From contig CAZCZJ010000002.1 in NCBI GenBank assembly GCA_964503235.1, positions 144-64,143 of the forward strand: DNA of 64,000 nt. Direction: 5' to 3'. The notes under the pieces are model-generated. The model was not told the DNA's origin and made no database searches. It was given only the letters and a program-made list of their open reading frames with translations. Source of the DNA: an uncultured Dehalococcoidaceae bacterium (GTDB lineage: Bacteria > Chloroflexota > Dehalococcoidia > Dehalococcoidales > RBG-16-60-22). The position numbers were made by a program, and so were the translations under genes. This document shows, in pieces, positions 9,267 through 54,457 of the stretch. Position 1 is the stretch's first letter, and every line of letters begins with the position of its first letter.

Positions 9267-9334
9267 TAGTACGTAATTTTTGTCAATTCGTCAAGTGTCC
9301 ATAAATAATCATGTATATGCTTAATGTCTCCTCG

Positions 9335-10831: not shown

Positions 10832-10852
10832 AAGTTTACAGGTTTTCTTCTC

Positions 10853-11425: not shown

Positions 11426-11502
11426 GGCAGTATCTCTCTCCCGGCGAAATTCATTTGGATAATGGATGACCGGTATATATCAATCATTATTCCTCTCATA
11501 GC

Positions 11503-13864: not shown

Positions 13865-13885
13865 GTCTTTTACCCGATATAGCCA

Positions 13886-19844: not shown

Positions 19845-19878
19845 TTTATATTACCCGGATAAAACTATATCGCCGTTA

Positions 19879-20328: not shown

Positions 20329-20337
20329 AAACCTCCG

Positions 20338-29803: not shown

Positions 29804-29938
29804 GCCCTGGCCTTTTCCAAATTATATCGCCATTCTCAGGCTTGTCATACCGCAAGTTTGACAAGCTATCAAATTTCATATAGTCTATTCTATACTCAAG
29901 AAAACACAAGATGTGTCAGCTAAAGGAGTCCCGGTCAT

Positions 29939-31195
29939 ATGGAATCCAGGAAGCTGAAGTCAAAAAATGATGAGCAACAGTCTGAGATTCTGGCATTAAG
30001 TCGGATTTCAGCCGCGCTCAGTGGCCTGTGGGATTTGGACGCCATCCTCGGTGTCGGCCTTGACAGTGCGCTGGAGTACATGCATGGCACCGTCGGCGAA
30101 ATCCTGCTTATCGATGAAGACAGACAGAGTCTTTCGCGTCGTGTTCACCGTGGTTTGAGTAAAGAGTTTGTTACCGGTTTACGTACTAATCTCGGTGAGG
30201 GCATTACCGGAAGTGTGGCTCAGAGCGGTAAGGCTGTTTTACTGGAGGACATCTCCTCCGACCCGCGTGTAGCGCATCGTGAACTTATCATTGCCGAAGG
30301 CCTGAAAGCTTTTATATCCGTGCCTCTCCGAGCTAAAGAAATAGTCCTGGGTGTTTTGAATATCGCCAGTCACAGGCCGCGGAAATTTACCAATGATGAT
30401 GTGTACTTTCTATATGCTATCGGCGACCAGCTTGGTATTGCCATCGAACATGCCCGACTATACGAAAGGTTAAGAAATGCCCGCGAAAGACTGCGGAAAC
30501 TGGCCCGGCAGAACCTGGTTGCCGAGGAGGACGAACGTCGCAGGATTGCCCGCGAACTTCATGACGAAACCAGCCAGTCGCTTTCGGGAATAGCCCTACA
30601 ATTACAGGCTTTAATAGAGATGTCCGGCATGTCCGGTACTCCGAGTGAAAAATTTGTTAGCGGATTAAAGAAGGTTCAGGCCTTAACCGTACAGGTCCAT
30701 AATGAAGTAAGTCGGCTGATTTCCAATCTCCATCCGGCTCTACTGGATACACTGGGTCTGGTACCGGCGGTCCGCCAGTATGCGGAGACCAGGTTGCAGC
30801 CCCTTGAGATTGACGTATCCGTGGAAATAAAGGGAAAAGAATTAAGGTTACCCCCTGAAGTTGAGGCGGCACTTTTCCGTTTTATACAGGGGGCGGTAGG
30901 TAATGTTGCCCAGCATTCTCAGGCCAAGAATGTCTCTGTTTTACTGGAGTTCCGACCGGATGAATTCATAATGAAAGTGAGCGATAACGGGCAGGGATTT
31001 GATGTTTCCGAGATTACCGATGTTGAGGAAAGCGGAAGAGGCCGCGGATTATTCAGCATGAGGGAAAGGATAGGTTTTCTCAGCGGTAAAAGCGGCATCG
31101 AGTCGGAAATCGGTAAAGGGACTACCGTCTGGGCCAGCATACCCATAGGTCAGGAAGTAGGATATGCAAAAGATAAGAGTACTGGTAGTCGATGA
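29939..31195 (+). CDS. GAF-domain sensor histidine kinase, NarL-partner type (HisKA_3)
   Basis: GAF block (GITGSVAQSGKAVLLEDI...), H-box ELHDETSQSLSG, and HATPase_c DNGQGF...GRGLFSMRER. Confidence 0.9.
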   Translation: MESRKLKSKNDEQQSEILALSRISAALSGLWDLDAILGVGLDSALEYMHGTVGEILLIDEDRQSLSRRVHRGLSKEFVTGLRTNLGEGITGSVAQSGKAVLLEDISSDPRVAHRELIIAEGLKAFISVPLRAKEIVLGVLNIASHRPRKFTNDDVYFLYAIGDQLGIAIEHARLYERLRNARERLRKLARQNLVAEEDERRRIARELHDETSQSLSGIALQLQALIEMSGMSGTPSEKFVSGLKKVQALTVQVHNEVSRLISNLHPALLDTLGLVPAVRQYAETRLQPLEIDVSVEIKGKELRLPPEVEAALFRFIQGAVGNVAQHSQAKNVSVLLEFRPDEFIMKVSDNGQGFDVSEITDVEESGRGRGLFSMRERIGFLSGKSGIESEIGKGTTVWASIPIGQEVGYAKDKSTGSR

Positions 31196-31817
31196 CCATA
31201 CCATCGTGCGGGATGGTATCTGTGCTTTACTAGCCTTGGTCGGGGACATTGAGGTGGTGGGAGAGGCGGTTAATGGGAGTGAAGCATTGAAAATGGTGGC
31301 TCAACTGCAGCCCGACGTGGTGCTTATGGATATCGCCATGCCTATCATGGGCGGTCTTGAAGCCACCCGCCGGATTACCAGAGAATTCCCGAAAGCCAAG
31401 GTGCTGGTCATCACCCAGCATGATGATAAAGAATATGTTTTCCCGGTATTAGAGTCGGGCGCTTCGGGCCTGATAAGTAAGGCCGCCGCATCCTCGGAGC
31501 TAGCCTCCGGTATTCGCTCGGTCAATAAAGGTGATTCCTTCCTTTCACCTTCCGTTGCCAAGCTGCTGGTGGAAAACTACCAGCAGACCGCAGGAGAAAG
31601 AAATCACCAGGACCCCTATAACCAGCTGACAGAACGGGAAAGAGAGGTTCTCAAGCTGCTGGCGGAAGGTTTCAGTACCCAGGAGATGGCGGATATGCTG
31701 GTAATCACCCGTAAGACCGTGGAAGGCCACAAGACCAACCTCATGACAAAACTCGGTATCCACAACCGCATCGATTTGGTGAAATACGCCCTGCGCCGGG
31801 GTATTATTACTATTTAG
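31164..31817 (+). CDS. NarL/LuxR-family response regulator
   Basis: Receiver VLVVDDH...DVVLMDIAMP, plus the LuxR HTH LTEREREVLKLLAEGFSTQEMADMLVITRKTVEGHKTNLMTKLG. It overlaps the kinase gene by 32 nt. Confidence 0.9.
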   Translation: MQKIRVLVVDDHTIVRDGICALLALVGDIEVVGEAVNGSEALKMVAQLQPDVVLMDIAMPIMGGLEATRRITREFPKAKVLVITQHDDKEYVFPVLESGASGLISKAAASSELASGIRSVNKGDSFLSPSVAKLLVENYQQTAGERNHQDPYNQLTEREREVLKLLAEGFSTQEMADMLVITRKTVEGHKTNLMTKLGIHNRIDLVKYALRRGIITI

Positions 31818-31878
31818 ACTCGTTCCTCATTGTCGTCACCTCTGTTGCTACCATATTCTCGCATTCAATATAGTCTCA

Positions 31879-31952
31879 TTACCCCTTTCTTTCGGGGGTA
31901 AATACCCTGAAAATCAGGGGTATAAATACCAACCATCGGGGTAAAAGCCCCA
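31879..31952. promoter_or_regulatory. Cluster of palindromes built on a TACCCC/GGGGTA core, candidate NarL-type operator or structured leader
   Basis: The sequence reads TTACCCCtttctttcgGGGGTAA, then TACCCTGAaaaTCAGGGGTA, then GGGGTAAAAGCCCC. TACCCCT fits the NarL heptamer consensus TACYYMT. Confidence 0.3.
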
Positions 31953-32017
31953 TTCCTCTTTAACTAAGGATGTCATATAGTGTGTGTTATAAGTGTTTCA
32001 CGGTGAAGGAGGTTATC

Positions 32018-32812
32018 ATGGAACAGACGTATAAAATCCTGATCGTGGATGATGAGCTGGAATTTTCCGAGGCTTTGAAGGCTACCCTCGAAAAAGAAGG
32101 GTATACGGTCGTTTATGCAGATGACCGTGGTGAGGCTGAGAAGGCCGTCCGCCATCATGAGCCCGATATTATTGTTCTGGGAACGATCATGCCCCGGGGA
32201 GACGCATTTCTCTTTCACAAGTGGTTGAAACAGACCCTGGGATTCAGCAGTCTGCCCATTATGGTTATCAACGCTGCCCCGGAACAGCAATTGGTCAAAG
32301 GCTGGCGACGGGATGAAGGAATGCAGTGTGACGCCGAAGACCTTCTGGCTAAGCCCGTCGAGCCGGAAGCGCTGGTTCCCCGCATTCAGAAACTGCTGGA
32401 CAAGACGACGAAGAAAATCCGTGTATTAATCGTCGATGACCATGCCGTGGTCAGAGACGGCATCAGGTCGGTACTGACTTTACAGCGTGACATGCAGGTG
32501 GTCGGTGAGGCTGTTAACGGACAGGAAGCCCTGGAAAAAACGGTGGAACTCCTGCCTGATGTCGTGGTCATGGATATTGTCATGCCGGTAATGAACGGAC
32601 TCGATGCCGCCAGGGAAATATGCAAGAGAGCCCAGCCCGCCAAGGTATTGATGTTGACTCAGTATGACGACGAAGAGAATGTAATGGCAAGTAAACAGGT
32701 TGGAGCCGTAGGTTTCATACCTAAAGCGGCGGCCAGTTCGCAGCTTTTAACGGGAATACGTTCCGTCGCTCGGGGCGATGAATCATGGATTGCGTCGCTC
32801 CAGCCTCATTAG
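32018..32812 (+). CDS. Tandem-receiver protein with no output domain. The first receiver is degenerate and the second is NarL-type.
   Basis: RBS GAAGGAGG precedes the ATG at 32018. REC1 reads ILIVDDE...DIIVLGTIMP, with Gly at the acceptor position. REC2 reads VLIVDDH...DVVVMDIVMPVMNG. The protein ends right after REC2 without a LuxR HTH. Confidence 0.8.
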   Translation: MEQTYKILIVDDELEFSEALKATLEKEGYTVVYADDRGEAEKAVRHHEPDIIVLGTIMPRGDAFLFHKWLKQTLGFSSLPIMVINAAPEQQLVKGWRRDEGMQCDAEDLLAKPVEPEALVPRIQKLLDKTTKKIRVLIVDDHAVVRDGIRSVLTLQRDMQVVGEAVNGQEALEKTVELLPDVVVMDIVMPVMNGLDAAREICKRAQPAKVLMLTQYDDEENVMASKQVGAVGFIPKAAASSQLLTGIRSVARGDESWIASLQPH

Positions 32813-32830
32813 GATTTGCGGAGTTAATGA

Positions 32831-35503
32831 GTGGAAGCAATCACCATAACTCTAAATGGCGTGGAGGTTAGCGGGTACCCTGCTACTACCATCCTTGACT
32901 TGGCCAGAGAACTCGGGGTCAACATTCCCACTCTGTGTCACGACCCGAATCTGGCGTCGACCGGTGCCTGCCGTTTGTGTCTGGTAGAAGATGAGAGAAA
33001 CGGGGCATTACTGGCTTCCTGCGTCACCTCCATTACCCCGGGAATGACCATTAATACCAACTCACCGCGGGTAATAGAACATCGCAAGAAAATCCTCAAA
33101 CTTCTGCTGGCAAGTCACCCCGACTCATGCCTTATCTGTGATAAGGGCAATCGTTGTCAACTCCATCAGCTGGCCGCGCAGATGGGTATCGGATTAAACG
33201 AATTCCAGAGAATACCGCAATTCGATGTTATCGAAGAGGTCAATCCTTTTATCGAGCGGGACCTTTCCAAGTGCATTATGTGTGGCAAGTGTATCAGAGC
33301 CGACCAGGAACTTGTCGTGGAAGGGGCTATCGACTACATACACCGCGGCACCATGGTTAAAGCCGCGACCCTGAATGAAGTCCCTCTGGAAAAATCCGAA
33401 TGTACTTTCTGCGGTACCTGTGTGGCTATCTGCCCCACCGGTGCCATTATGGAAAAGGAAAGGGCTTATGCCGGTACAGTGACAAATACGGTAACGACGG
33501 TATGTCCGTATTGTGGTTGTGGCTGTACTATACTTTTAGGTGTCAAGGATGGCAAAGTGTTACAGGCAGTACCGGCAGATAGCAGTCCTGTAAATGCGGG
33601 TACTCTCTGTGTCCGGGGGAGCTATGGCTGGGATTTTATTAACAGTAGCGACAGATTGACTACTCCTTTAGTCAAAGAAGACGGCGAGTTCCGGGAAGCG
33701 ACCTGGGATGAAGCGTTAACCGCCGTGGCTGACGGATTGAAAAAAATCAAAGAGTCCGGCGGTCCCGACTCGCTGGCGGTTTTCGGTTCGTCGCGGTGCA
33801 CCAATGAGGAGAACTATCTGCTACAGCGTTTCACCCGCAACATCCTGGGAACGAATAATATCGATAACGGCAGTCGTCTTTACAGTGCCGCCAGCCTGAC
33901 GGGGCTGGGAGCCTCGATTGGTTATGCGGGTACAACCGGTTCATTCGATGTTCTGGAGCGGTCACGGGTTATTATCGTCATCGGCGCCAATCCTGAGATA
34001 TCGGCTCCGGCCGTAGCCTATGCCATCAAGCGGGCGGTCAAATATAAAGAGGCAGAGCTATGTGTTATTGACCCGCGTTTCACTCAGCTGGCACGTTTCG
34101 CTCGTTCCTGGCTGCAACCGAGGGTGGGCACAGATATAGCCCTGCTCAACGGTTTAGCCAGAGTGATTATCGATAAAAAGAAATTCGATATGGAATTCGT
34201 CTCTCGCATGACCGATAATTTTACACAATGGGAGGAGAGCCTGGAAAGATATACCCCCGATTACGTAAAGAAGGTAACCGGAATACCGGCGAAGGAAATA
34301 CAGCAGGTAGCGCAGGTCCTCGCCGAAGCTGAAGAGGCGGCTATTATATATGGTAACGGCATTACCCAGTACGCCACCGGCACCGATGCTGTTATCGCCA
34401 TCGCCAACCTGGCGATGCTCACCGGGAATACCGGTAGGTCCGGCGGTATCTTTGCCCTGCAGAGAGAAAATAACGCCCGTGGAGCCTGTGATATGGGCGT
34501 CTTGCCCGATTTTCTCCCCGGTTATCTGAGTATAACTGACTCTCAAAACCGGCAGAAATACGAAAAGAAGTGGGGTGCCAAAATACCCTTAGCCGCCGGG
34601 TACAGCGCCCTGGAGATGATGGAGAAAGCCCGTGAGGGAAAGGTCAAAGGGATGCTCATCATGGGAGAAAACCCGGTCGAAAGCTTTCCCCAGCCGTCTC
34701 TCGTAAAGGAAGCGCTGTCATCTCTGGACTTTCTGGTTGTAGCGGATATGTTTCTCTCGGAAACAGCTAAACTGGCATCGGTCGTCTTGCCGGCATCCAG
34801 CTTCGCGGAAAAAGAAGGGACCTTTACCAACTTTGAGGGGAGGGTGCAAAGATTACATCAAGCAATCGAGCCTGTCGGACAGAGCCTCCCCGATGGTGAG
34901 ATACTGCTCGGGTTATCGGAGGCGATGGGTTCAACGATGCCTTATGCGTCCCAACAGGAAGTCATGGAAGAAATCGAAGAGATGGTGCCCTTTTATCGAC
35001 ATTTAGCCTTCGGTGAAACGGATAAAACAGATTCGGAATGGGGTGATGTTGATGGCGGCAGTCACGCGTCGAGGCGTCTTCATAAGGGGCTGTTCCCCAG
35101 CGGGTTCGGGCGGTTCTCTCCTGTCGAGTACGTACCTCCGCCGCCACCTGACGGTTATACCTTTACTCTCATGATTGGCTCGGTCAGGTACGGTTTCGGC
35201 TCGGGTGTACGAAGCTCACGGTCGGATAGGATGAGCCGATTTAATAGCGACGGATATCTGGATATAAATAGTGCCGACGCTGCAAAACTGGGTATCAGTG
35301 ACGGCGATATGGTGAAGGTAATATCACCTGACGGAAGGCTGGAAAAGGCTGCCAGAATAGACACTGATCTACCCCGGGGCATGTTATTCGCTCCGATATC
35401 ATCACCCGGTGGCGCCGTTTACAAATTATTCGGCACTGTCCTTGACCCGCAATCGAAAGCCCCGGCTATCAAGTCCTGCGCCGTAAAGCTGGAAAGAGTT
35501 TAG
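32831..35503 (+). CDS. FdhA/NuoG-like multi-cluster iron-sulfur protein with a molybdopterin-oxidoreductase-fold domain that lacks the catalytic Sec/Cys
   Basis: N-terminal 2Fe-2S (C..C..C...C), the His-ligated cluster motif HPDSCLICDKGNRC, two 4Fe-4S motifs (CIMCGKC, CTFCGTCVAICP), and the Mo-domain cluster CPYCGCGC. Where FdhH has CARV(U)HGPS, this protein has NGSRLYSAAS. Confidence 0.85.
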   Translation: MEAITITLNGVEVSGYPATTILDLARELGVNIPTLCHDPNLASTGACRLCLVEDERNGALLASCVTSITPGMTINTNSPRVIEHRKKILKLLLASHPDSCLICDKGNRCQLHQLAAQMGIGLNEFQRIPQFDVIEEVNPFIERDLSKCIMCGKCIRADQELVVEGAIDYIHRGTMVKAATLNEVPLEKSECTFCGTCVAICPTGAIMEKERAYAGTVTNTVTTVCPYCGCGCTILLGVKDGKVLQAVPADSSPVNAGTLCVRGSYGWDFINSSDRLTTPLVKEDGEFREATWDEALTAVADGLKKIKESGGPDSLAVFGSSRCTNEENYLLQRFTRNILGTNNIDNGSRLYSAASLTGLGASIGYAGTTGSFDVLERSRVIIVIGANPEISAPAVAYAIKRAVKYKEAELCVIDPRFTQLARFARSWLQPRVGTDIALLNGLARVIIDKKKFDMEFVSRMTDNFTQWEESLERYTPDYVKKVTGIPAKEIQQVAQVLAEAEEAAIIYGNGITQYATGTDAVIAIANLAMLTGNTGRSGGIFALQRENNARGACDMGVLPDFLPGYLSITDSQNRQKYEKKWGAKIPLAAGYSALEMMEKAREGKVKGMLIMGENPVESFPQPSLVKEALSSLDFLVVADMFLSETAKLASVVLPASSFAEKEGTFTNFEGRVQRLHQAIEPVGQSLPDGEILLGLSEAMGSTMPYASQQEVMEEIEEMVPFYRHLAFGETDKTDSEWGDVDGGSHASRRLHKGLFPSGFGRFSPVEYVPPPPPDGYTFTLMIGSVRYGFGSGVRSSRSDRMSRFNSDGYLDINSADAAKLGISDGDMVKVISPDGRLEKAARIDTDLPRGMLFAPISSPGGAVYKLFGTVLDPQSKAPAIKSCAVKLERV

Positions 35504-35507
35504 AAAT

Positions 35508-36026
35508 ATGACGAAACTGCAAAAGAAAAAACCTAAAATCAGTATGAAACAGATAGAGAAAATCGTTGCCGAATACCAGGGTAAAAGGTGGGCGCTGATA
35601 CCCCTTGCCCAGAAAATCCAGGAGCAGGCTGGCTACATACCTCCGGAAGCAATACCCGTTATCGCCCGCCGACTCGGCTTGTTCCCGGCTCAGGTGCAGG
35701 GGGTTGTTACTTTTTATTCTCAGTTGTACACCCATCCCAGGGGTAATAATATCGTCAGGGTATGCCGGGGCACTGCCTGCCACGTACGCGGTGGCAAGTC
35801 CATCCTCAAGCTGGTCAAACAACACCTCAGCATCGATGAAGATGAGACCACCGAAGATATGGAATATACGCTGGAAACGGTGGCCTGCATCGGTGTTTGT
35901 GCGCTGGCGCCCAACCTCGTGGTGAACAATACCATTTACGGCAACATGAATCCTAAAAAGGTTGCCGCTGTTTTCAGTAATTACCGGGGACGTTCTAATG
36001 GTAAAAAAGAAGATAATAAAAAATAA
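35508..36026 (+). CDS. NuoE/HydC-like thioredoxin-fold [2Fe-2S] protein
   Basis: VCRGTACHVRGG....CIGVCALAP motif. 4-nt gap to the upstream gene. Confidence 0.85.
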   Translation: MTKLQKKKPKISMKQIEKIVAEYQGKRWALIPLAQKIQEQAGYIPPEAIPVIARRLGLFPAQVQGVVTFYSQLYTHPRGNNIVRVCRGTACHVRGGKSILKLVKQHLSIDEDETTEDMEYTLETVACIGVCALAPNLVVNNTIYGNMNPKKVAAVFSNYRGRSNGKKEDNKK

Positions 36027-39000
36027 GAATGGCCAGCGCCAGGTTCTCGTCTGCTGTGGGTCGGGCTGTCCCGGCTCGGAGCAGGTGCGGCAATGCCTCG
36101 AAGAGGAAATAGCCCGGCAGGGCCTCGGAGTCGAAGTTAAACCTACCGGTTGCCACGGTTTCTGCCAGCAGGGTCCCACCCTGCTAATCGAGCCCGATAA
36201 TATCCTCTACTGCAAAGTGACCGATGATGATATTCCTGAGGTTGTTCGAGAACATCTGGGTAATAACCGTATTGTCGAGAGGTTGTTGTACGTCGACCCC
36301 GTCTCCGGTAAGACCGTACCGCGCTACTCGGATATCAGGTTCTATGAGGAGCAGAAGCGTATTATCCTGCGAAACTGCGGTCATATCAACCCCGAGAATA
36401 TTGAAGACTATGTCGCCCGGGGCGGGTATCAGTCGCTGAAAAAGGCTATCTTTGATATGACGCCCGAAACCGTTATCGATGAAGTCAAACGTTCCGGACT
36501 GCGGGGCCGTGGCGGCGCGGGGTTTCCCACCGGTCTCAAGTGGGAGACCTGCCGCAACAACCCGGGCTCGCAGAAGTATGCCATCTGCAACGCCGATGAA
36601 GGCGACCCCGGCGCTTTCATGGACCGCTCTATATTGGAGGGCGACCCGCATGCCATGCTGGAAGGGCTGGCGATTACCGCCTATGCTATCGGTGCCAGCG
36701 AAGGCTATATCTATATTCGTATTGAGTATCCGCTGGCGGTCAAGCACCTCTACACGGCCTTAGCCCAGGCGGAAGAAAAGGGATACCTGGGTAAAAATAT
36801 TCTCGGTTCAGACTTCTCCTTTAACGTGCAAATCAAGGAAGGGGCCGGCGCTTTCGTCTGCGGCGAAGAGACGGCCCTGATAGCGTCTATCGAAAGCAAG
36901 CGGGGTATGCCGCGGCCTCGTCCACCCTTCCCGCCACAATCGGGACTGGATGGTAAACCGACGGTCATTAATAATGTCAAAACTCTGGCCACGATTTCTG
37001 CCATCCTGGAAAAAGGTGCTGAATGGTATGCCGGTATCGGCACGGAAAAAAGTCGCGGCACCACCGTCTTCGCTCTCACCGGGAAGATTGCTAACAGCGG
37101 ACTGGTAGAGGTGCCTATGGGCACGCCGCTTTCCCGTATTATCTATGATATGGGAGGCGGCATACCGCGCGGCCGGCAGCTCAAGGCGGTGCAGACCGGC
37201 GGTCCGTCCGGGGGCTGCATCCCTGCCCGCTTTATCGATACTCCCATAGGTTATGAAGAGCTGGCGGCTCTGGGTTCGATTGTCGGCTCGGGCGGCATGG
37301 TGGTTATGGACGAGGCTACCTGTATGGTAGAGGTAGCCCGCTTCTTCCTGAGCTTTACCCAGGCGGAGTCCTGCGGCAAGTGCACGCCCTGTCGATTGGG
37401 AACGCGGCAGATGCTGGAGATTCTGACCCGGATTACCGAGGGCCGGGGACGCGATGAAGATATCGATACCCTGCTCTCCATTGCCGATACAGTTAAGGAA
37501 TGTTCATTATGCAGCCTGGGAAAGACAGCCCCCAATCCGGTCGTTTCCACCATTAAGTATTTCCGCGAAGAGTACGAGGCGCATATCCGTGAGAAGAAAT
37601 GCCCGGCCGCGGTCTGTGAAGCTTTAATGATTTCGCCCTGCCAGCACACCTGTCCCGCAGGTATCAATGTCCCTAAATATGTAGCTCATATCGCCGAAGG
37701 CGAATATAAAGAAGCCATCGAGACTATCCGGGAACGCAATCCTTTCGCTGCGGTCTGCGGTCGTATCTGCCACCACCCCTGTGAGAACCGCTGCCGCCGC
37801 GGTGAACTGGACGAACCCGTCGCCATAAGGTCGTTAAAACGCTTCGCCGCTGACTGGTATGCGGAGCATGGTGCCGAAATCGGCGCTATCGAGCCCTTCC
37901 CGGTAACTAAAAAGGATAAAGTGGCGGTGGTCGGGGCTGGACCTACCGGTCTTGCCTGCGCTTACTTTCTGGCTCAGGCCGGTTACCCGGTTACGGTCTT
38001 TGAAGCCCTGCCGGTGGGTGGGGGTATGCTCTCTGTGGCTATCCCCGAGTTCCGTCTGCCCAAAACTGCCATCCAGCAGGATATAGACTATATCACCGGT
38101 AAGGGAGTGGAGATACGTTACAATACCCCGCTGAATACTAATTTCACCTCTGAGCACCTGAAAAAGGAAGGTTATAAAGCCATCTTTATCGCTGCCGGTG
38201 CCCAGCGCAGTCAGCGACTCGGTATACCCGGAGAGGTGGAGGATGTCGAAGGTCTTTATTACGGTTTGCGGTTCCTCCGGGATGTACGACTTGGCAGGGA
38301 GGTAACCGTGGGTAAGCGGGTAGCTATCATCGGTGGAGGCAACGTTGCTTTGGATGCCGCCCGAACCTGCCTCCGTCTCGGTGCTGAAGAAGCCAGTATT
38401 TATTACCGCCGCTCTCGCGATGAGATGCCTGTTTCCGACGTTGAATATGATGAAGCTACCGATGAGGGCGTTATCATGAATTATCTCATCAGCCCGACGC
38501 GTATCACCAGTGATGACTGGAAGGTAACCGGACTTCAGTGTACCCGCATGGAACTGGGTGCACCGGATGATAGCGGTCGGCGGCGTCCTATCCCGATTAC
38601 CGGCTCGGAATTCAATATCCAAGCGGATACGGTTATTGCTGCCGTCGGTCAGGCGCCTGACCTCTCTTTCCTGCCTCCCGACAGCACCCTGGAGCGTACC
38701 CGCTGGGAAACGTTGGTAGTAGAAAGCAATACTCTGGCCACGAATATTGACGGTGTATTTGCTGGAGGCGACTTTGTGACCGGGCCGGCCATGGTTGTCG
38801 AGGCCATCGCTGCCGGACGCAGGGGTGCCATCGCCATCGATAAGTATTTAAGGGGTGACGATTCACGGGTGGAGATTTACGACCGTAAAAGCGCTGCGAC
38901 TATCGAACCCGCTACAGCTGAGCTTGAAGATACCTGGGAAGAAAAACCGAGGACTAAAATTAAGACATTACCGCTGGCGGACAGGAGAAGCAGTTTTACG

Positions 39001-39078
39001 GAGATAGAGCTCGGTATGACGGAAGAAATCGCTGGTATCGAAGCCAAACGGTGCCTGCGGTGCGACCTTGAAGGATAG
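35998..39078 (+). CDS. Fusion protein combining a NuoF/HydB-like NADH-FMN module with a GltD/NfnB-like NADPH-FAD module
   Basis: ATG at 35998 (MVKKKIIKN...). The NuoF half has GRGGAGFPTGLKW, ICNADEGDPGAF and ESCGKCTPCR. The GltD half has CQHTCPAG, CGRICHHPCENRC, VAVVGAGPTGLACAYFLA and VAIIGGGNVALDAAR. Confidence 0.85.
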   Translation: MVKKKIIKNKNGQRQVLVCCGSGCPGSEQVRQCLEEEIARQGLGVEVKPTGCHGFCQQGPTLLIEPDNILYCKVTDDDIPEVVREHLGNNRIVERLLYVDPVSGKTVPRYSDIRFYEEQKRIILRNCGHINPENIEDYVARGGYQSLKKAIFDMTPETVIDEVKRSGLRGRGGAGFPTGLKWETCRNNPGSQKYAICNADEGDPGAFMDRSILEGDPHAMLEGLAITAYAIGASEGYIYIRIEYPLAVKHLYTALAQAEEKGYLGKNILGSDFSFNVQIKEGAGAFVCGEETALIASIESKRGMPRPRPPFPPQSGLDGKPTVINNVKTLATISAILEKGAEWYAGIGTEKSRGTTVFALTGKIANSGLVEVPMGTPLSRIIYDMGGGIPRGRQLKAVQTGGPSGGCIPARFIDTPIGYEELAALGSIVGSGGMVVMDEATCMVEVARFFLSFTQAESCGKCTPCRLGTRQMLEILTRITEGRGRDEDIDTLLSIADTVKECSLCSLGKTAPNPVVSTIKYFREEYEAHIREKKCPAAVCEALMISPCQHTCPAGINVPKYVAHIAEGEYKEAIETIRERNPFAAVCGRICHHPCENRCRRGELDEPVAIRSLKRFAADWYAEHGAEIGAIEPFPVTKKDKVAVVGAGPTGLACAYFLAQAGYPVTVFEALPVGGGMLSVAIPEFRLPKTAIQQDIDYITGKGVEIRYNTPLNTNFTSEHLKKEGYKAIFIAAGAQRSQRLGIPGEVEDVEGLYYGLRFLRDVRLGREVTVGKRVAIIGGGNVALDAARTCLRLGAEEASIYYRRSRDEMPVSDVEYDEATDEGVIMNYLISPTRITSDDWKVTGLQCTRMELGAPDDSGRRRPIPITGSEFNIQADTVIAAVGQAPDLSFLPPDSTLERTRWETLVVESNTLATNIDGVFAGGDFVTGPAMVVEAIAAGRRGAIAIDKYLRGDDSRVEIYDRKSAATIEPATAELEDTWEEKPRTKIKTLPLADRRSSFTEIELGMTEEIAGIEAKRCLRCDLEG

Positions 39079-39096
39079 AAAAGGAGGGGGGACGCG

Positions 39097-39741
39097 ATGA
39101 AATCAATGACAAAGCAAAAACCGATAGAGGAAATACAGCAATCCCTTGAAGGTCTTGATAAAGTGTTTATCGTCGGCTGCGGTACCTGCACAACACTTAC
39201 CAGCACCGGAGGTGTCGAGCAGGTTGAGGAAATGAAGGAGAAACTTCAGGAAATGGGAAAATGGCTGACCGGTACGGTGGTTATTCCCACCGCCTGCGAC
39301 GATATGACGGATGTGGCGATGAAGGAAAACGAGCAGGCTATCCGCAGCGCCGATTGTATTCTATCTATGAGCTGCGCCCTGGGAGTTCACCGCATGAGCC
39401 TCTATCTCGATATTCCGGTAATTCCGGCCGTGGACACCCTTTTTATCGGCGTGGAAGAGACCCCCGGTTATTTCCGCGAAGCCTGTGCTCAATGTGGCCA
39501 GTGCCTTCTCGGGATAACGGCTGGTATCTGCCCGATTACCGCCTGTCACAAAGGACTGGTCAACGGCCCCTGCGGCGGCACCAATAACGGCAAGTGCGAG
39601 GTCGATAAAGAGAAAGATTGCGCCTGGACGCTGATTTATAACCGACTTAAAGAGCAGAACCGCCTTCATCTGATGCGTCAATACCAGCCGCCCCGGAATC
39701 ATCATATCACCCTTCAACCTAAATCGATGAAAATTTCGTAA
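39097..39741 (+). CDS. metV: MetV-like protein (methylene-THF reductase C-terminal-domain/zinc-ribbon protein)
   Basis: Cys-rich motif CPITACHKGLVNGPCGGTNNGKCEVDKEKDCAW. It lies immediately upstream of metF. Confidence 0.7.
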   Translation: MKSMTKQKPIEEIQQSLEGLDKVFIVGCGTCTTLTSTGGVEQVEEMKEKLQEMGKWLTGTVVIPTACDDMTDVAMKENEQAIRSADCILSMSCALGVHRMSLYLDIPVIPAVDTLFIGVEETPGYFREACAQCGQCLLGITAGICPITACHKGLVNGPCGGTNNGKCEVDKEKDCAWTLIYNRLKEQNRLHLMRQYQPPRNHHITLQPKSMKIS

Positions 39742-39754
39742 GGGAGTTAGGAAA

Positions 39755-40639
39755 ATGGTATCACGTTTCAAAGAGGCCCTTGACTCCGGTAAATTTGTGA
39801 TTACCAGCGAGGTTGCCCCGCCTAAGGGGACCAACCTGGAGAAAATGCAGCATCACATCGAGTTATTGAAGGATAAGGTCGATGGTATCAATATTACCGA
39901 CCACCAGAGCTCGGCGATGCGCTTTCCCTCCCTCGGTGGTTGCCTGGCGGTGCTGGAAAGCGGCGGTGAGGCTATTATGCAGATGACCTGCCGCGACCGT
40001 AATCGTATAGCGCTGGAAGCCGACCTGCTTTTTGCCTACAGTCGTGGTGTCCGGAATGTACTCTGTCTCACCGGAGACGCCGTGGTGGTGGGCGACCATA
40101 AGGAAGCCATGGGTGTCTTTGACCTGGATTCGCTGCAGCTTATCAATACTATTCACACTCTGGCGGGGGGTAAGGACTTGGGAGGGAATGACCTCGATGG
40201 TGCGGTGGAGTTCTGCGTGGGAGCTATCGTTACCCCGGAAGCCCAGCCCCTCGAGCCGCAGTTGATAAAGTTCGAGAAGAAGGTGGAGGCTGGCGCCGAG
40301 TTCTTTCAGACCCAGGCTATCTACGACCTGGATAATTTCAAGAAATTTATGGACTACGCTCGCAAGTTCAAGACCAAGATACTGGCTGGTATCGTCCTGC
40401 TGTCCTCGGCCAGAATGGCCAGGTATATGACGGCTAATGTCCCCGGTATCTTTGTTCCCCAGGATTTACTCGACGAGATGTCGGCGGCGCCCAAAGAAGC
40501 GATGCTGGCTAAAGGTATCGAGATAGCCGGAAGGACTATCGCTGCTTTAAAGAGAGATGCCGTCTGCGACGGCGTTCATATCATGGCTATCGGCCGGGAG
40601 GAAACCGTCCCCGATATCCTGGCGGCTGCGGGAATGTAA
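39755..40639 (+). CDS. metF: 5,10-methylenetetrahydrofolate reductase
   Basis: 294 aa with the MTHFR TIM-barrel pattern (EVAPPKG...DHQSS...CRDRNR...FFQTQAIYD). Confidence 0.85.
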   Translation: MVSRFKEALDSGKFVITSEVAPPKGTNLEKMQHHIELLKDKVDGINITDHQSSAMRFPSLGGCLAVLESGGEAIMQMTCRDRNRIALEADLLFAYSRGVRNVLCLTGDAVVVGDHKEAMGVFDLDSLQLINTIHTLAGGKDLGGNDLDGAVEFCVGAIVTPEAQPLEPQLIKFEKKVEAGAEFFQTQAIYDLDNFKKFMDYARKFKTKILAGIVLLSSARMARYMTANVPGIFVPQDLLDEMSAAPKEAMLAKGIEIAGRTIAALKRDAVCDGVHIMAIGREETVPDILAAAGM

Positions 40640-40650
40640 ATCCGCTATTA

Positions 40651-41544
40651 TTACTCTACCCAGGCGACTTCGTATTTAGCCGCCAGACCTATCTCCATGA
40701 CGCTGTAAGGTCTTTCTAGCTTATTACACACGATGGGGAAGTGCGGTGTCCCCTTGGGTAGAGCCACCACGGTGGGAACACCAAAGGTATGCTTTTCATG
40801 TTCCGCGCCGATTTCTATAGTAAGCTCCGCGCCCAGGTAGCTCAGGTTATCGGTGTTATGCCCGAAGAATATCAGGCATTTGTCGTAGGGGCTTATTTGC
40901 GCGCCCTTGCCGGGATACCATTCACCGGTCGAGTTGTGCAGGCTCATCCTGAAGTTAACATTCATTCCTTCCAGTTTGTCGCCGGACATTGACAGCAGAT
41001 GCTTGGCGGCGGCACCGCCGGGTCCTTCCTGTACCTTCATCTCGTGGAACAGGTGAGTGTATTTATTGCCGTCGGTGGTGCCTTCCAGCGGCACCGGACC
41101 CCCGGAATATTTGGCAGCCAGCGCCAGGTGAAAATGCCCGAATGATTTGTATACTTTCTCGGTGATGAGCGGACAGTGCGGCATGCCTTTGGGAGCGGTT
41201 ACCACGGTGGGTACGCCGAATTTATGTATTTCCTGTTCCTTGCCTATCGCTAACGACATGTCCGAGCCCAGGTAGCTCATGTCTTCATCGTCGTAGCCGA
41301 AGAACAGCAAACATTCGTCGAAGGTATGGTCGTGCGCTCCCCGGTTAGGAGCCCAGTCACCCGTCTGGTCGTATACGCCGACGATGAAATTTAGGTCCAT
41401 GCCGCCCAGTTCATCCCCCCCGACAAATACCAACTCTTTGGCGTTGGCCCCGCCCATCCCCGGCCTGAAAGATAAAGTCTTCACGAGATTTCCGTATTTA
41501 GTATCTGCCACTGGTTTCCCCCTTTTGAACACTTGGATGGGCAA
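40651..41544 (-). CDS. Bicupin protein of unknown function (paralog family copy 1)
   Basis: Two cupin halves. Half 1 has HDHTFDE(x5)G and PKGMPH. Half 2 retains PKGTPH but has lost the HxH. Each half is preceded by a (T/N)KY(G/T) motif. Confidence 0.6.
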   Translation of the reverse strand: MPIQVFKRGKPVADTKYGNLVKTLSFRPGMGGANAKELVFVGGDELGGMDLNFIVGVYDQTGDWAPNRGAHDHTFDECLLFFGYDDEDMSYLGSDMSLAIGKEQEIHKFGVPTVVTAPKGMPHCPLITEKVYKSFGHFHLALAAKYSGGPVPLEGTTDGNKYTHLFHEMKVQEGPGGAAAKHLLSMSGDKLEGMNVNFRMSLHNSTGEWYPGKGAQISPYDKCLIFFGHNTDNLSYLGAELTIEIGAEHEKHTFGVPTVVALPKGTPHFPIVCNKLERPYSVMEIGLAAKYEVAWVE

Positions 41545-41627
41545 ATTCTATGTTATTCTAGGATACAATGCAAACAAGTAGTAAAAATTCAGACTGTTCC
41601 CTGCCATAACCCCTGACCGGGGTGTTT

Positions 41628-41649
41628 AAGAGGGGCTGGCGCCCCTCTT
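41628..41649. repeat. GC-rich palindrome related to the 1854-1874 element
   Basis: AAGAGGGGC, tggc loop, GCCCCTCTT. The flanking TTTAAGAGGGG and TATCCCCTTCTC-like words are shared with the 1811-1874 locus. Confidence 0.5.
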
Positions 41650-42294
41650 TCTATTTATTCCCCCTCTTAAACAAGATAAAAATGCGCATTGAATAAAAAT
41701 CAGTTTGAGAAGGGGATAAAGGTGGAGAGCATCTGAAATCAATCAAAACCATACAGGACTCAAGAAGTCTTTCGTTGTCATTCAACTCTCAGCCAGCCAT
41801 AATATTACAAATCCCAGTGAATTCGCTCTTATTATCCTCATTGTAACAGAGTAGAGGAGAAGTCATGAGTGGAAATAACGTTAAATACCAATGCTCATGT
41901 AACCAGGAAAATATCCGGTGCTACTCTTACCAGGGCCGGACGGTAGCGCCGTGACTTCGGAACAGTCCCCGGTAAAAATCAGGAATGCCACTCAGGCTGT
42001 CGATGCTGTCCTGTCCTGCCTGCGTGAACAAAAAGTACCCGCGATTCCGGATGCAGATACAAAATGGCATCAGAAGACCATAATTATTACTGGAAGGGAA
42101 GTATCCGGGCTGACGGCGTTATTCGGGAAGAAGTGGCTTTTAGAGAACTGCCCGTACCGGAGGCTCGGAAGATAGCCGATGAATTTCTGTTGAAAACTAA
42201 AATTCCTCCCCCGAGGCCTGGCGGCTATGGTCATTGAGAGTGGTAAATACTAATATTGACGATAGCCTGGAATATAGTTAAAATATTCTTTGAC

Positions 42295-42612
42295 ATGAAA
42301 AATAAAAAAATTATCTGCTTTGTGTTTACCCTTGCGGTTATTTTCCTTTTATCTCTTTATTTAACCTCCTGTGCGGCACCGGTTATTCATACGCCTTCTG
42401 ACTGGTCTTTTAATATCACCTTTCCTTACTGGGGCTTCCCCTTCGGTTTTATCGGTCTAGCCCTTTATTTCCTGCCGACGATTATTGCTGCTGTTAGACG
42501 AAGCAAAAGTATATTAGGCATCGTACTGTTAAATATATTTCTCGGCTGGACCTTTATCGGATGGGTAATATCCCTGGTATGGTCTCTGGTCGGCGAAGCC
42601 GGTAAAAATTAA
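42295..42612 (+). CDS. Small lipoprotein with a superinfection-immunity (Imm)-like TM domain
   Basis: ATG at 42295 and signal with lipobox LYLTSC. The C-terminal YFLPTIIAAVRRSKSILGIVLLNIFLGWTFIGWVISLVWSL resembles the Imm_superinfect family signature. Confidence 0.5.
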   Translation: MKNKKIICFVFTLAVIFLLSLYLTSCAAPVIHTPSDWSFNITFPYWGFPFGFIGLALYFLPTIIAAVRRSKSILGIVLLNIFLGWTFIGWVISLVWSLVGEAGKN

Positions 42613-42883
42613 CTCCACGTCTTTTCATCAGGGCTGCTAACTTTATCCGTTCTTTTCCGTTCTAATATATGTAACAGATAAAGGTGGTAACTAAAATGAA
42701 GGCTTTTCCAAACTTTTCGTTAAAACCAATCATGGATGAGATACTGGAGTCCATGCGTCAGGTCAACACGGTACCGGTTCCCGTCGAGTCAAAAGTATAC
42801 CTTAGCCCGGTAGAAATACGGCGCTACGTTCGTAATCTCAGGAAAAACCGACAAACTGATACCGGTTAGACGTCCCGACGATG

Positions 42884-42928
42884 TAAAAAAGATTGGGGGT
42901 ACTTAACACTCAATGAAAATACCCCCAA
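42884..42928 (-). terminator. Possible intrinsic terminator (long loop)
   Basis: 9-bp stem TTGGGGGTA / TACCCCCAA with an 18-nt loop. The minus-strand T-run is TCTTTTTTAC. Confidence 0.35.
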
Positions 42929-43073
42929 GAGAATCTGAATCCACGACCCAATTCCTCGTCAGAAACGCTTATGTATCATGACGATATGCAGAATTATTTA
43001 GTTCCCGGTGTTAGCTCTTTACTCTAATCCCGGTCTATTTTAAACACCACGTTCCAGAACCAGTGCGTTTTTA

Positions 43074-43328
43074 TTAATATATGCTTAAAGAGAAGGAACT
43101 CATGACTATGGCGGCCAGAATAATACCCGCCATTGCCAGTAATGTAATCTTTATTTTAGTATCATCCTCAGCTTTAAATAAAGCCCCCCAGAGTAGTGCC
43201 AGCGGCATTATGAGGACACCGATAATATATAGCCATTTGACCTCGGCACCGTAGCCTATAACTGTGAATATTATTCCCAATACTAGTGCAGCGAACATTT
43301 CCAACATGAATTTGTCCTCCCTTGTCAT
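43074..43328 (-). CDS. Small integral membrane protein (3 TM), unknown function
   Basis: 84 aa with three hydrophobic helices. No family recognised. Confidence 0.45.
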   Translation of the reverse strand: MTREDKFMLEMFAALVLGIIFTVIGYGAEVKWLYIIGVLIMPLALLWGALFKAEDDTKIKITLLAMAGIILAAIVMSSFSLSIY

Positions 43329-43546
43329 AGAAATAACAGCCTTGTTCAGCTATTTTTGGTAGTTTATGCTTCTCGGCTTTATTTGTCAACTAAGCCCTTT
43401 TCAGGCGGTTTTAACGCAATAAAACCTTAACATAATGTTAGTATTATTTTTCAACACTATACTGACGGGCATAAATGCGTTAATAAATGTCTGAATGTTG
43501 CCTGCGTAGAGGAAAGCCAGCGCTTCATAGCCGTAGAGGTATATAG

Positions 43547-43580
43547 ATAAAAGAAAAGGCACAGCCGGAGTAGCTGTGCC
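43547..43580 (-). terminator. Intrinsic terminator after the NuoE/NuoF/FeS operon
   Basis: GGCACAGC, cggagta loop, GCTGTGCC (43558-43580). On the minus strand it is followed by TTTTCTTTT. It lies 30 nt after the stop at 43610. Confidence 0.65.
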
Positions 43581-43609
43581 CTCTTATTACCTGGAATATT
43601 ATTACCGGT

Positions 43610-44317
43610 TTAGTCTTGAGATGCTGAAACCATTGCTCCGATTTCGGCATAGGGTATTTTCACCCTCGGTAATTCCGGCTTGCCGTTTTCGCCCATTTTG
43701 ATGGCTCCGGTGGGACAGACAAAAGCGCAATCCCCGCAGCCGATGCACTCTTCGCCCAGTTCGTAGGCATAAAACGGGGCGGCAACTTCTTTGTAAATGC
43801 CGCGGTTGACCAGGCTTATAGCCGATTTCCCGATGATTTCCTGGCAGGCCCTCACACATAGTCCGCAGAGAATGCAATCGTGGTCGCCCAAGGCGAATCT
43901 AGGTTTCTCGACCCCGTACTCCTCCGCAAGCTCCTGTATTATCTTGGTATTGGGACATCTTGCCAGCAGAAGCTCGATAATGCCCTTACGCAGGTTCCGC
44001 ACCCTCTCGGTATTTGTTTTCACGATGATGCCCTCCCGGGCCGGATACAGACAGGAGGCGACGAATCTGAAACTCTTCCCCTTGTCTTCGCTGACCTCGA
44101 CGGTACACAGACGGCAGGCGCCGTAAGGTCGGACCGCGGGATGGTAACAGAGAGCCGGAATATTACCGATTCCTTGCTGACGCTGCAGGGCCTCGTATAT
44201 GGTCTGCCCGCTCGACACGACGACATTTTTATCATCGACAGAGAAGTGCACGGCGTTGTTATCTTCGGCTTCCTCTATATCGACCGTTTTTTCGCTGCTA
44301 ATCCAGTATTTAGTCAT
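43610..44317 (-). CDS. Short NuoG/HydA-N-terminal-like Fe-S protein (2Fe-2S plus 2x 4Fe-4S) without any catalytic domain
   Basis: ALCYHP...GACRLCTVEV...ASC (2Fe-2S), plus CILCGLCVRAC and CIGCGDCAFVCP. It is 235 aa, with no H-cluster or molybdopterin domain. Confidence 0.8.
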   Translation of the reverse strand: MTKYWISSEKTVDIEEAEDNNAVHFSVDDKNVVVSSGQTIYEALQRQQGIGNIPALCYHPAVRPYGACRLCTVEVSEDKGKSFRFVASCLYPAREGIIVKTNTERVRNLRKGIIELLLARCPNTKIIQELAEEYGVEKPRFALGDHDCILCGLCVRACQEIIGKSAISLVNRGIYKEVAAPFYAYELGEECIGCGDCAFVCPTGAIKMGENGKPELPRVKIPYAEIGAMVSASQD

Positions 44318-44329
44318 TATTTTCTCCTT

Positions 44330-46210: not shown

Positions 46211-46229
46211 TTTTTAGCCTTCCTTACGT

Positions 46230-46727
46230 CTATTCGTACTTTTTCAGGATTTTGTCGAGTTTATCCGGGGTTACCTTGCTTTCGTATTTGCCATCGACTA
46301 CCACTACGGGACCGAGAGCGCAGCAACCCAGACAGTTGGCGGTCTCCAGCGAAAACCTCATATCTTCCGTCGTTTCGCCGGGTTTCAGTTCATAGTCCCT
46401 TTCCATCTTATCGACGAGTCTCTGCCCGCCTTTGATATGGCAGGCTGTGCCGAGGCAGACGGTTATGGTATGGCGTCCTCTCGGTTTCAGGCTGAATGCC
46501 TGGAAAAACGTGGCTACACTGAAAACCTGGCTTAGAGGAATTTCCAGCTTCTGGCTTATCCTGATGAGGACATCCTGAGGGATGTAATTGAACTCAGCCT
46601 GAACGTCCTGCAATAAAGATATCAATTGCTCCTTTTTATCAATGTAGCTTTCTATCAGGTTTTCAACCTTCTCGGCGTTGCTTTCCAAGATGGTTTGAAT
46701 CGTGATGAAATCCAGACTAGTATCCAC
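46230..46727 (-). CDS. NuoE/HydC-like [2Fe-2S] protein
   Basis: VCLGTACHIKGG....CLGCCALGP. Confidence 0.85.
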   Translation of the reverse strand: MDTSLDFITIQTILESNAEKVENLIESYIDKKEQLISLLQDVQAEFNYIPQDVLIRISQKLEIPLSQVFSVATFFQAFSLKPRGRHTITVCLGTACHIKGGQRLVDKMERDYELKPGETTEDMRFSLETANCLGCCALGPVVVVDGKYESKVTPDKLDKILKKYE

Positions 46728-47648: not shown

Positions 47649-47696
47649 TCTCCTCGGCTGACCGGGGAAATATTAACTGCTGTATAAATAATAGAT

Positions 47697-53135: not shown

Positions 53136-53137
53136 GA

Positions 53138-54421: not shown

Positions 54422-54457
54422 TTCTTTCCCTCCTTAGATTATCCGCGTGGTTATGCA

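Follow-up and report, generated by a model that had tools for sequence, protein, structure and literature searches.

Methylene-tetrahydrofolate (methylene-THF) reductases (MTHFRs) have been sorted by the Müller laboratory into types I-IV. Types I and III are uncoupled, type II is ferredoxin-using and wasteful, and the second acceptor of type IV is unknown; the review that sets out this scheme deals with types I-IV alone (PMC8760232). A further arrangement, in which homologues of nuoEFG are located 5' of metFV, was reported by Yi et al. in 2021 to occur 'widely in Desulfobacterales and Chloroflexi', with Dethiosulfatarculus sandiegensis as one of its carriers. It was named the 'X type', described as unstudied and speculated to be bifurcating, and it formed its own group in their MetFV phylogeny (PMC8515935). 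In addition, Frank et al. (2016) described a cluster of the order FDH-nuoE-nuoF-metVF (GeneID 2635450610-14) in unFirm_1, a candidate syntrophic acetate oxidiser, and all of its products were detected in the metaproteome. The FDH-like protein of that cluster was read as a real (second) formate dehydrogenase (FDH) linking the first and last pathway steps (PMC5080403). In the present study, we analysed 64,000 nucleotides of DNA from an uncultured Dehalococcoidaceae bacterium (contig CAZCZJ010000002.1; this whole stretch is called the window below), which carry a five-gene cassette of this kind, here termed G-E-F-MetV-MetF (Table 1). In the window, the nuoE, nuoF and nuoG homologues stand directly 5' of metV-metF, as in the X type, of which the cassette is a member; the unFirm_1 cluster is equated with it by description alone. 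A first-pass annotation had presented the cassette as a candidate new architecture. As a first sighting this claim did not hold, because Yi et al. and Frank et al. had already described the arrangement, and the architectures that it listed as established were those of the type I-IV scheme. What was already known is the gene arrangement and the speculation on bifurcation; the present analysis adds the anatomy of the system, how it was derived in evolution and its strict co-inheritance. The account of the X type is one of gene order, and its passages do not mention a dead FdhA site, an exchange of the ferredoxin arm for a GltD domain, or flanking regulators (PMC8515935); the passages on the unFirm_1 cluster likewise contain no mention of a dead pterin site or a GltD fusion (PMC5080403). 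In the open-access literature searched, we found no description of the dead active site, of the replacement of the ferredoxin arm by GltD or of the NuoF-GltD fusion family, and nothing relevant on D. sandiegensis as a follow-up.

We tentatively propose that the cassette encodes one coupled MetFV-type reductase system with its own electron-input module, in which G, a formate dehydrogenase with a lost active site, would act as the wire; we rate this reading at somewhat below an even chance. The spacings given for the five genes were exact: 4 nt separate G from E, E and F overlap by 29 nt, MetV follows F after 18 nt and MetF follows MetV after 13 nt. Shine-Dalgarno-like motifs were located 5' of G, MetV and MetF. 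The MetF protein matched MTHFR (PF02219; 141 bits, residues 5-292 of 294), and its sequence relatives in the PDB were exclusively MTHFRs. MetV matched DUF5981 (PF12225, MTHFR C-terminal; 123 bits) and contained, within VNGPCGG, the NGPCGG motif known from PMC8515935. The PDB search with MetV returned no match, so there was no solved MetV-containing enzyme for comparison. With metV immediately 5' of the MetF gene at a distance of 13 nt, the pair has the organisation of MetFV-type enzymes. The E protein matched 2Fe-2S_thioredx (PF01257; 164 bits), and its translation showed a CxxxxC...CxxxC pattern, as predicted for a BfuC-type subunit carrying a C1-type [2Fe-2S] cluster. By motif, five Fe-S clusters were predicted in G, one in E and four, plus a putative Zn site, in F. 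The two clusters predicted for MetV according to PMC8515935 bring the number to ~12, in addition to flavin mononucleotide (FMN), flavin adenine dinucleotide (FAD) and the MetF flavin. The Moorella enzyme MetFV-HdrABC-MvhD (type IV) and the Acetobacterium enzyme MetFV-RnfC2 (type III) also combine MetV-MetF with an NADH-oxidising flavin/Fe-S module encoded in the same operon. However, their modules are unrelated to that of the cassette, which has two predicted pyridine-nucleotide sites and no HdrA, HdrBC, MvhD or RnfC2; Pfam domains of these four were absent from the genes in 29939-41544. The sole CCG-domain gene of the window (53138-54421) was located 12.5 kb away, between two FAD_binding_4 genes.

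The order of the five genes was then compared with that of related loci. Conserved synteny, which the first-pass annotation had named beforehand as a check, was strict from the F, G and MetF sides. In a survey of species-representative genomes based on F, 13 loci with F at 70-84% identity were obtained, mostly from Dehalococcoidia metagenome-assembled genomes and a few binned elsewhere. All 13 were compatible with G-E-F-V-M; eight were complete (L002, L003, L005, L007, L008, L009, L011 and L013), and five were cut by contig ends. In the MetF-based survey of 80 metagenome loci (MetF 76-95% identical), the genes expected upstream were present wherever enough DNA was available, without exception, the counts being 62/62 for MetV, 32/32 for F, 28/28 for E and 22/22 for G. 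From the G side, the contexts of seven separate 50%-identity clusters (39-50% identity to G), one of them from Deltaproteobacteria bacterium SM23_61 and showing the G-E-F start of the cassette, all began with G-E. A ~1040-aa F, or its start, followed wherever the contig continued, and MetV-MetF followed where the contig was long enough (L085, L087, L090). In these distant cassettes, MetF was 71-72% identical to its window counterpart; the corresponding values were 60-63% (F), 55-57% (MetV), 53-58% (E) and 39-50% (G). The G-E-F clade was never seen without metVF in >100 loci. These results indicated that the order is beyond chance, being the same in every related locus with enough flanking DNA. 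An assembly chimera or a chance adjacency was rejected because the order recurs in >100 independent assemblies. In a database look-up, the window F protein itself was found in just one 7-kb JGI contig, with an identical gene set. In three distant clades (L085, L086 and L089), G-E-F was flanked by MTHFR genes on both sides. The second MTHFR-family gene lay directly 5' of G (L085, 3623-4564; L086, 6944-7816; L089, 6933-7811), and these extra paralogues had 290-313 aa and were ~31% identical to the window MetF.

Both the Pfam assignment (Complex1_51K, SLBB, NADH_4Fe-4S, Fer4_20 and Pyr_redox_2) and the PDB matches confirmed that F is a NuoF-GltD fusion. Its reading frame opens earlier than the ATG at 35998, with a TTG at 35962. 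Residues 15-544 correspond to a BfuB-type core and residues ~545-1026 to a GltD/NfnL-type domain. The core was ~60-65% identical to bifurcating BfuB subunits and scored 769-771 bits against NiFe-HydB (7t2r_B), 706 against HydB (7q4v_B), 676 against NfnB (9n5u_B) and 661 against StnB (8oh5_B), compared with 369-408 bits against the non-bifurcating FdsB/Nqo1. In the alignment, it contained an N-terminal thioredoxin-like four-Cys domain, an FMN/NADH site and B1 [4Fe-4S] motifs; the last two are the features predicted of a BfuB core. The four N-terminal Cys residues were shared with 7t2r_B and 7q4v_B, and thus the B5 site looks intact. An H..C....C motif, common to the bifurcating HydB chains in the alignment, is what we take to be the putative B2 (3Cys+1His) zinc site. 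Non-bifurcating homologues are described as having no B2-B5 sites (PMC9304861). Homology of F to most BfuB chains stopped near residue 544, where Fer4_20 and Pyr_redox_2 follow, so that the C-terminal 2x[4Fe-4S] domain (B3/B4) is absent and the GltD-type domain stands in its place. In NfnABC, the B3/B4-type domain is the route by which low-potential electrons leave the NuoE-type cluster and reach ferredoxin. The GltD domain of F, with two predicted [4Fe-4S] clusters and FAD, was closest to the A subunits of NfnABC/Stn (9bov_A, 421 bits; 9n5u_A, 401; 8oh5_C, 348), and Thermotoga maritima NfnB (4ylf_B) ranked lower with 318 bits. Its second Rossmann motif, GGGNVA...YRRS, is probably of the NADPH type, judging from the GltD/NfnB family pattern and the remark on GxGxxA in PMC7483475.

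The Bfu family as defined by Schut et al. in 2022 shares with the cassette a BfuC-like E, a BfuB-like F core and a BfuA-like G with A1-A5. It is likewise modular, and its third substrate enters via the A subunit, as is proposed here (PMC9304861). The B3/B4 domain belongs to the invariant BfuBC core of this definition and is missing from F; therefore, the window was not filed as a canonical Bfu member. A further difference is that the third substrate of Bfu enzymes is a mid-potential partner, whereas methylene-THF would be the high-potential one in the cassette. In the parts of the Bfu survey drawn on here, no MetVF partner, no fusion variants and neither of the terms 'methylene' and 'MetF' were found (PMC9304861). 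The claim of a complete HydABC/NuoEFG-style module must thus be qualified, as F has no ferredoxin-reducing C-terminal 2x[4Fe-4S] domain. A similar comparison was made with StnABC/NfnABC (Nfn-Bfu; PDB 8oh5, 9bov and 9n5u), the electron-bifurcating transhydrogenases of Sporomusa ovata and Caldicellulosiruptor saccharolyticus, which have the same domain inventory (NuoE-, NuoF-, GltD- and NuoG/FDH-like). In these enzymes, GltD is placed at the N-terminus of the A subunit, from where it feeds the mid-potential arm, and a C-terminal 2x[4Fe-4S] arm to ferredoxin is still present in the B subunit. In the cassette, by contrast, G begins with Fer2_4, and GltD replaces the ferredoxin arm at the C-terminus of F. 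Because F lacks B3/B4 and GltD is differently placed, the cassette is more than a rearranged Stn. G and the Stn/NfnABC enzymes have in common a NuoG/FDH-like domain whose pterin site is predicted to be non-functional, but G scored much higher against true FDHs (533-586 bits) than against StnC/NfnA (256-273 bits).

The Pfam domains of G were Fer2_4, NADH-G_4Fe-4S_3, Fer4_Nqo3, Molybdop_Fe4S4, Molybdopterin and Molydop_binding. Its best solved relatives were true FDHs, with 586 bits for YjgC (8rqz) and 533-535 bits for FdsA-type alpha subunits, and the alignment to solved FDHs bore out the disabled molybdopterin domain that had been proposed. Tyr351 occupied the column of the catalytic Cys of YjgC and of the FDH alpha subunit 9wxb_B. 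Ser352 stood in the His column of 9wxb_B, where YjgC itself has Gln, and Gln544 stood in the column of the catalytic Arg (ALQRENNARG against the FDH motif PLRGQNNVQG). On this alignment, G appears to have neither the Cys/Sec and His nor the catalytic Arg of a Mo/W FDH. The Fe-S region gave a different picture. The ligands were complete for one [2Fe-2S], one His-ligated [4Fe-4S] and the Mo-domain [4Fe-4S] cluster, and two ferredoxin-type [4Fe-4S] motifs were also present. One of these (CxxCxxCxxxC) had Asp158, encoded by window positions 33302-33304, as its fourth position instead of Cys. This position was Asp in 8/8 close MetVF-linked G proteins and in 9/10 of the nearest degenerate representatives, and Cys in 11/12 genuine FDHs; the cluster could be Asp-ligated or a [3Fe-4S] cluster, with a shifted potential.

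To describe the constraint on G, eight MetVF-linked G proteins (the window and seven close relatives) were compared at positions invariant in 12 real FDHs. Of these positions, the Fe-S region had kept 29/31, the Mo domains 63/102 and the C-terminal cap 5/28. The mean pairwise identities of the Fe-S, Mo and cap regions were 0.78/0.66/0.54 in the MetVF-linked G and 0.43/0.57/0.51 in the real FDHs. In a set of 14 degenerate G proteins, none of the Cys/His ligands at the five Fe-S sites varied except position 158, and the former Cys/Sec position was variable (Y, S, T, H, R, N, E, D); Tyr351 was invariant within the closest clade. By these patterns, purifying selection on G has shifted from the catalytic pterin domains to the Fe-S wire. 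Cys was found at the catalytic position in just 52/150 of the nearest 50%-identity cluster representatives of G, and in none of the 14 nearest (40-59% identity). The loss of the FDH residues coincided exactly with linkage to MetVF: every MetVF-linked G had Tyr, Ser, Thr, His or Arg in place of Cys/Sec at the catalytic position in this comparison, and in every G located 3' of a MetVF-less NuoF-GltD both FDH motifs, CARL[C]H and PL[R]GQNNVQG, were canonical. No fdhD or moeA was located beside the window cassette, whereas the genuine FDH locus L020 has both. G is accordingly best described as a predicted electron wire and scaffold, not a catalyst.

To place F among its relatives, a neighbour-joining tree of 44 full-length NuoF-GltD fusions was calculated with 200 bootstraps. 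The MetVF-linked F proteins formed one clade (200/200) that was sister to the clade of FDH-linked F (185/200), and the hydrogenase-linked F proteins were placed elsewhere. About 35 more distant full-length fusions (42-56% identity) had the order E-F and no adjacent metVF; they came from Planctomycetota, Aminicenantes, Spirochaetia, Bacillota, Firestonebacteria, deltaproteobacteria and other Dehalococcoidia. The gene 3' of these fusions encoded an [FeFe] HydA in four loci (L015, L029, L031, L036) and a Cys-FdhA in nine (L019, L020, L022, L024, L034, L035, L039, L040, L045). In L017, it was a small NuoG N-terminal protein followed by a Glu_synthase-domain protein, and in L041 a Glu_synthase-domain protein. 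NuoE plus NuoF-GltD is thus an interchangeable input module. The FdsABG-type NAD-dependent FDHs and the NuoE/NuoF-GltD/FdhA(Cys) loci contain the same three subunit types as the cassette. In the latter loci, FdhA is 38-42% identical to G and keeps Cys/Sec, His and Arg. Unlike the cassette, they have the order E-F-G and no adjacent metVF, except for L020, where metVF is ~5 kb away together with HdrA/MvhD. This planctomycetotal locus carries HdrA/MvhD-MetV-MetF-FolD at 62-3759 and, ~4.6 kb 3' of metF, NuoE, NuoF-GltD, FdhA(Cys), FdhD and MoeA at 7366-15823. The ancestral state may plausibly have looked like this locus, in which a real FDH and a Moorella-type MTHFR are neighbours.

In the proposed enzyme, a module derived from a NuoE/NuoF-GltD/FdhA formate dehydrogenase would serve MetVF. 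G would have been retained as Fe-S wire and scaffold, and electrons from the E-F flavin/Fe-S core could cross G and MetV to arrive at the MetF flavin. The enzyme would couple three redox sites: the FMN of F for NAD(H), the GltD-domain FAD for NADP(H) and MetF for methylene-/methyl-THF. Coupling, whether bifurcating or confurcating, would take place at the Bfu-type FMN/B1/C1 site. The FMN of F would oxidise NADH, the high-potential electron would pass via G and MetV to methylene-THF, and the low-potential electron would pass via the NuoE cluster and the two GltD clusters to NADP+ or to a docked ferredoxin. In methyl- or acetate-oxidising organisms, the direction could be reversed. One version of this mechanism would be a ferredoxin-independent Bfu-type bifurcation that uses pyridine nucleotides alone, with the GltD branch, fed by a mobile NuoE cluster, reducing NADP+ in the reversible reaction 2 NADH + methylene-THF + NADP+ -> 2 NAD+ + methyl-THF + NADPH; we consider this specific version unlikely. 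Methylene-THF reduction has an E0' of about -200 mV. With textbook standard potentials, the reaction of 2 NADH, methylene-THF and NADP+ is exergonic by the ~120 mV of the MTHFR step, and at physiological NADH/NADPH ratios it is near balance.

A functional and probably physical coupling of the module to MetVF is favoured by the coincidence of FDH-site loss with MetVF gain, by the monophyly of MetVF-linked F, by the position of G-E-F between MTHFR genes in three clades and by the absence of any MetVF-less member of the clade from the loci seen. That the module belongs functionally with MetVF, as the first-pass annotation had held, is supported by the deep synteny together with the first two of these findings; physical association, the electron path and bifurcation are predictions from sequence. 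Several points weigh against a single coupled enzyme. Adjacency alone does not prove a complex, because the stnABC genes of S. ovata lie directly 3' of metVF and yet their product purifies as an independent transhydrogenase (PMC7483475). MetV has 214 aa, which in size is near the ~24 kDa MetV of the two-subunit enzyme (PMC8515935), and would thus seem to leave no room for an added docking domain. Since F has no B3/B4 low-potential arm, what holds for bifurcation in the characterised Bfu enzymes is not simply transferable, and the substrate roles would be permuted relative to Bfu because methylene-THF, at -200 mV, must be the high-potential partner. A promoter/terminator consensus scan of 29500-43700 yielded 22 sites of each kind against ~14 expected, with none convincing within the cassette; the scan, whose consensus does not cover Chloroflexi promoters, leaves the transcript boundaries unsettled. 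In addition, no biochemical or structural study of this cassette type was found in the open-access literature searched.

The S. ovata case leads directly to the alternative that two enzymes are encoded in one operon, i.e., a self-contained Stn/NfnABC-like transhydrogenase made of G-E-F, with NADH, NADPH and perhaps ferredoxin as substrates, and a two-subunit, ferredoxin-dependent MetVF, co-transcribed merely because of a shared C1/redox-balance role. G would then be a remnant as in NfnA of C. saccharolyticus, whose incomplete pterin site is unoccupied and whose side branch has been termed a remnant. S. ovata StnC, a GltD plus NuoG-like subunit annotated as FDH, also has no FDH activity (PMC7483475). 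Two-subunit MetFV enzymes run on reduced ferredoxin alone (PMC8515935, PMC8760232), and the kinship of the GltD domain of F with the NfnABC/Stn A subunits fits this alternative as well. Stn-type genes, however, are widespread without metVF, non-acetogens included (PMC7483475), whereas the G-E-F clade described here never occurred so, and in three clades it is enclosed by MTHFR genes. F also lacks the B3/B4 domain that Stn/Nfn use for ferredoxin, and its GltD sits on another subunit and another arm. The Fe-S ligands of G, including those of the cluster beside the dead pterin site, are invariant apart from position 158 while the pterin domains drift. On balance, we regard two separate enzymes as somewhat unlikely.

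A single complex could also work without energy coupling, as a plain NADH/NADPH methylene-THF reductase whose two nucleotide sites reflect dual donor specificity. It would be a functional analogue of the type III enzyme of Acetobacterium woodii, in which MetFV and an NADH module form a simple non-bifurcating reductase (PMC8515935, PMC8760232). The canonical Bfu ferredoxin arm is indeed absent from F, and the reduction of methylene-THF by NAD(P)H is exergonic and does not need coupling. One RnfC-like subunit would suffice for such a reaction, but here >2000 accessory residues and ~12 predicted Fe-S clusters are strictly conserved. F retains the four-Cys domain, the putative B2 motif and its high identity to bifurcating BfuB, and a layout with three different substrate sites is the hallmark of coupled enzymes; an uncoupled complex is thus also on the unlikely side in our estimate. 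Far less credible is the reading of G as an active FDH with an unusual metal ligand that links CO2/formate conversion to methylene-THF reduction. The scores of G against solved FDHs, its passing of the Pfam molybdopterin models, the invariance of Tyr351 in the closest clade and the annotation of the counterpart by Frank et al. as a second FDH (PMC5080403) would speak for it. Yet all three catalytic residues are substituted, the residue in the Cys/Sec column differs (Y, S, T, H, R, N, E) among the MetVF-linked G proteins of the wider clade, the pterin-capping domain has lost most FDH-invariant positions, and the cassette has no adjacent fdhD/moeA, unlike L020. The inactivity of the FDH-annotated StnC points in the same direction, and we consider an active FDH very improbable.

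Table 1. Features of the window, with the five cassette genes listed first.
Feature	Position	Strand	Size and basis
G, NuoG/FdhA-like	32831-35503	+	890 aa; Pfam, alignment to solved FDHs
E, NuoE/BfuC-like thioredoxin-like [2Fe-2S] subunit	35508-36026	+	172 aa; Pfam
F, NuoF-GltD fusion	35998-39078	+	1026 aa from ATG; Pfam, PDB sequence matches
MetV, Fe-S/zinc-ribbon-like small subunit of MetFV-type reductase	39097-39741	+	214 aa; Pfam DUF5981
MetF, catalytic flavoprotein of methylene-THF reductase	39755-40639	+	294 aa; Pfam MTHFR
Sensor histidine kinase, GAF + HisKA_3 + HATPase	29939-31195	+	Pfam
LuxR-type response regulator, REC + GerE	31164-31817	+	Pfam
REC-REC protein without output domain	32018-32812	+	two Pfam Response_reg stretches
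Canonical BfuABC-like trio	43610-46727	-	Pfam
LuxR response regulator and PAS histidine kinase of the BfuABC-like trio	46980-48779	+	
Short-chain dehydrogenase adjoining the GlcDEF-like trio	50704-51486		
FAD_binding_4, CCG-domain, FAD_binding_4/FAD-oxidase_C trio (GlcDEF-like)	51612-55924	-	
Sensor/pilus-rich region: MEDS (DcmR-type sensory domain) multi-PAS histidine kinase; type IV pilus set (PilM/N, T2SSF, T2SSE); two large PAS/GAF hybrid kinases	5997-9266; 9335-16878; 17253-23907	-	

Three signalling genes precede the cassette. The sensor kinase had homologues with 75-81% identity at the same position in L002, L005, L006, L007 and L013, and the position of the LuxR-type regulator, a likely partner of this adjacent GAF kinase, was kept in the same five loci. 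The REC-REC gene, which the first-pass annotation had overlooked, has a strong Shine-Dalgarno motif before its ATG and was found directly 5' of G in these loci and in L003. Since it ends 18 nt before G and is conserved in the closest relatives, the transcription unit may hold six genes, and the REC-REC gene is probably co-transcribed with the cassette. At the other end, a weak hairpin overlaps the metF stop codon. Two-component genes flanked the cassette in every clade examined (the window and L083, L085, L086, L087, L089 and L090). Their types varied by clade and comprised GAF or PAS histidine kinases, LuxR/MerR/sigma-54 response regulators and stand-alone receivers. This recurrence suggests that the cassette is conditionally expressed.

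Other Wood-Ljungdahl genes were not found among the scanned open reading frames (ORFs) of the window, a scan that left out ~20 mostly small ORFs. Downstream of metF, a 297-aa ORF (40651-41544, minus strand) gave no Pfam match. The following stretch (41545-43609) was AT-rich (GC ~0.44) and had no long ORFs except one of 118 aa (42256-42612) with a superinfection-immunity domain; it may be a mobile-element remnant. The BfuABC-like trio beyond it comprises an A subunit of 235 aa (Fer2_4 and 2x[4Fe-4S]), a B subunit of 626 aa (N-terminal thioredoxin-like domain, Complex1_51K and the usual C-terminal 2x[4Fe-4S]) and a NuoE-like C subunit of 165 aa, with no catalytic partner gene beside it. A link between this trio and the cassette was rejected, because the trio does not stand beside the cassette in relatives. 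The trio of FAD_binding_4 and CCG-domain genes resembles a glycolate or lactate oxidase, and the region between 5997 and 23907 was unusually sensor-rich.

The energy coupling of methylene-THF reduction is an open point in Wood-Ljungdahl bioenergetics, on which the cassette bears directly, and so is the reverse problem, the driving force for methyl-THF oxidation in anaerobes that oxidise acetate or methyl groups. Beside MTHFR types I-IV, the cassette would represent a fifth solution, which is widespread in uncultured sediment Dehalococcoidia and present in deltaproteobacteria too. Its predicted anatomy is testable: two nucleotide sites, no canonical ferredoxin arm, a dead-FDH wire and an Asp-for-Cys exchange in a cluster motif. 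It also indicates that a molybdoenzyme subunit that was once a catalyst can be taken over purely for electron transfer; a similar recruitment is thought to have given NuoG of complex I. Across phyla, the modular NuoF-GltD input unit has been combined with hydrogenase, FDH, glutamate-synthase-like and MetVF partners. If the ferredoxin-independent version of the proposed mechanism is true, these NuoF-GltD assemblies with HydA, Cys-FdhA and glutamate-synthase-like partners would form a new Bfu-derived class, and NADPH formation would conserve the free energy released in the MTHFR step; in the reverse direction, NADPH would pull methyl-THF oxidation.

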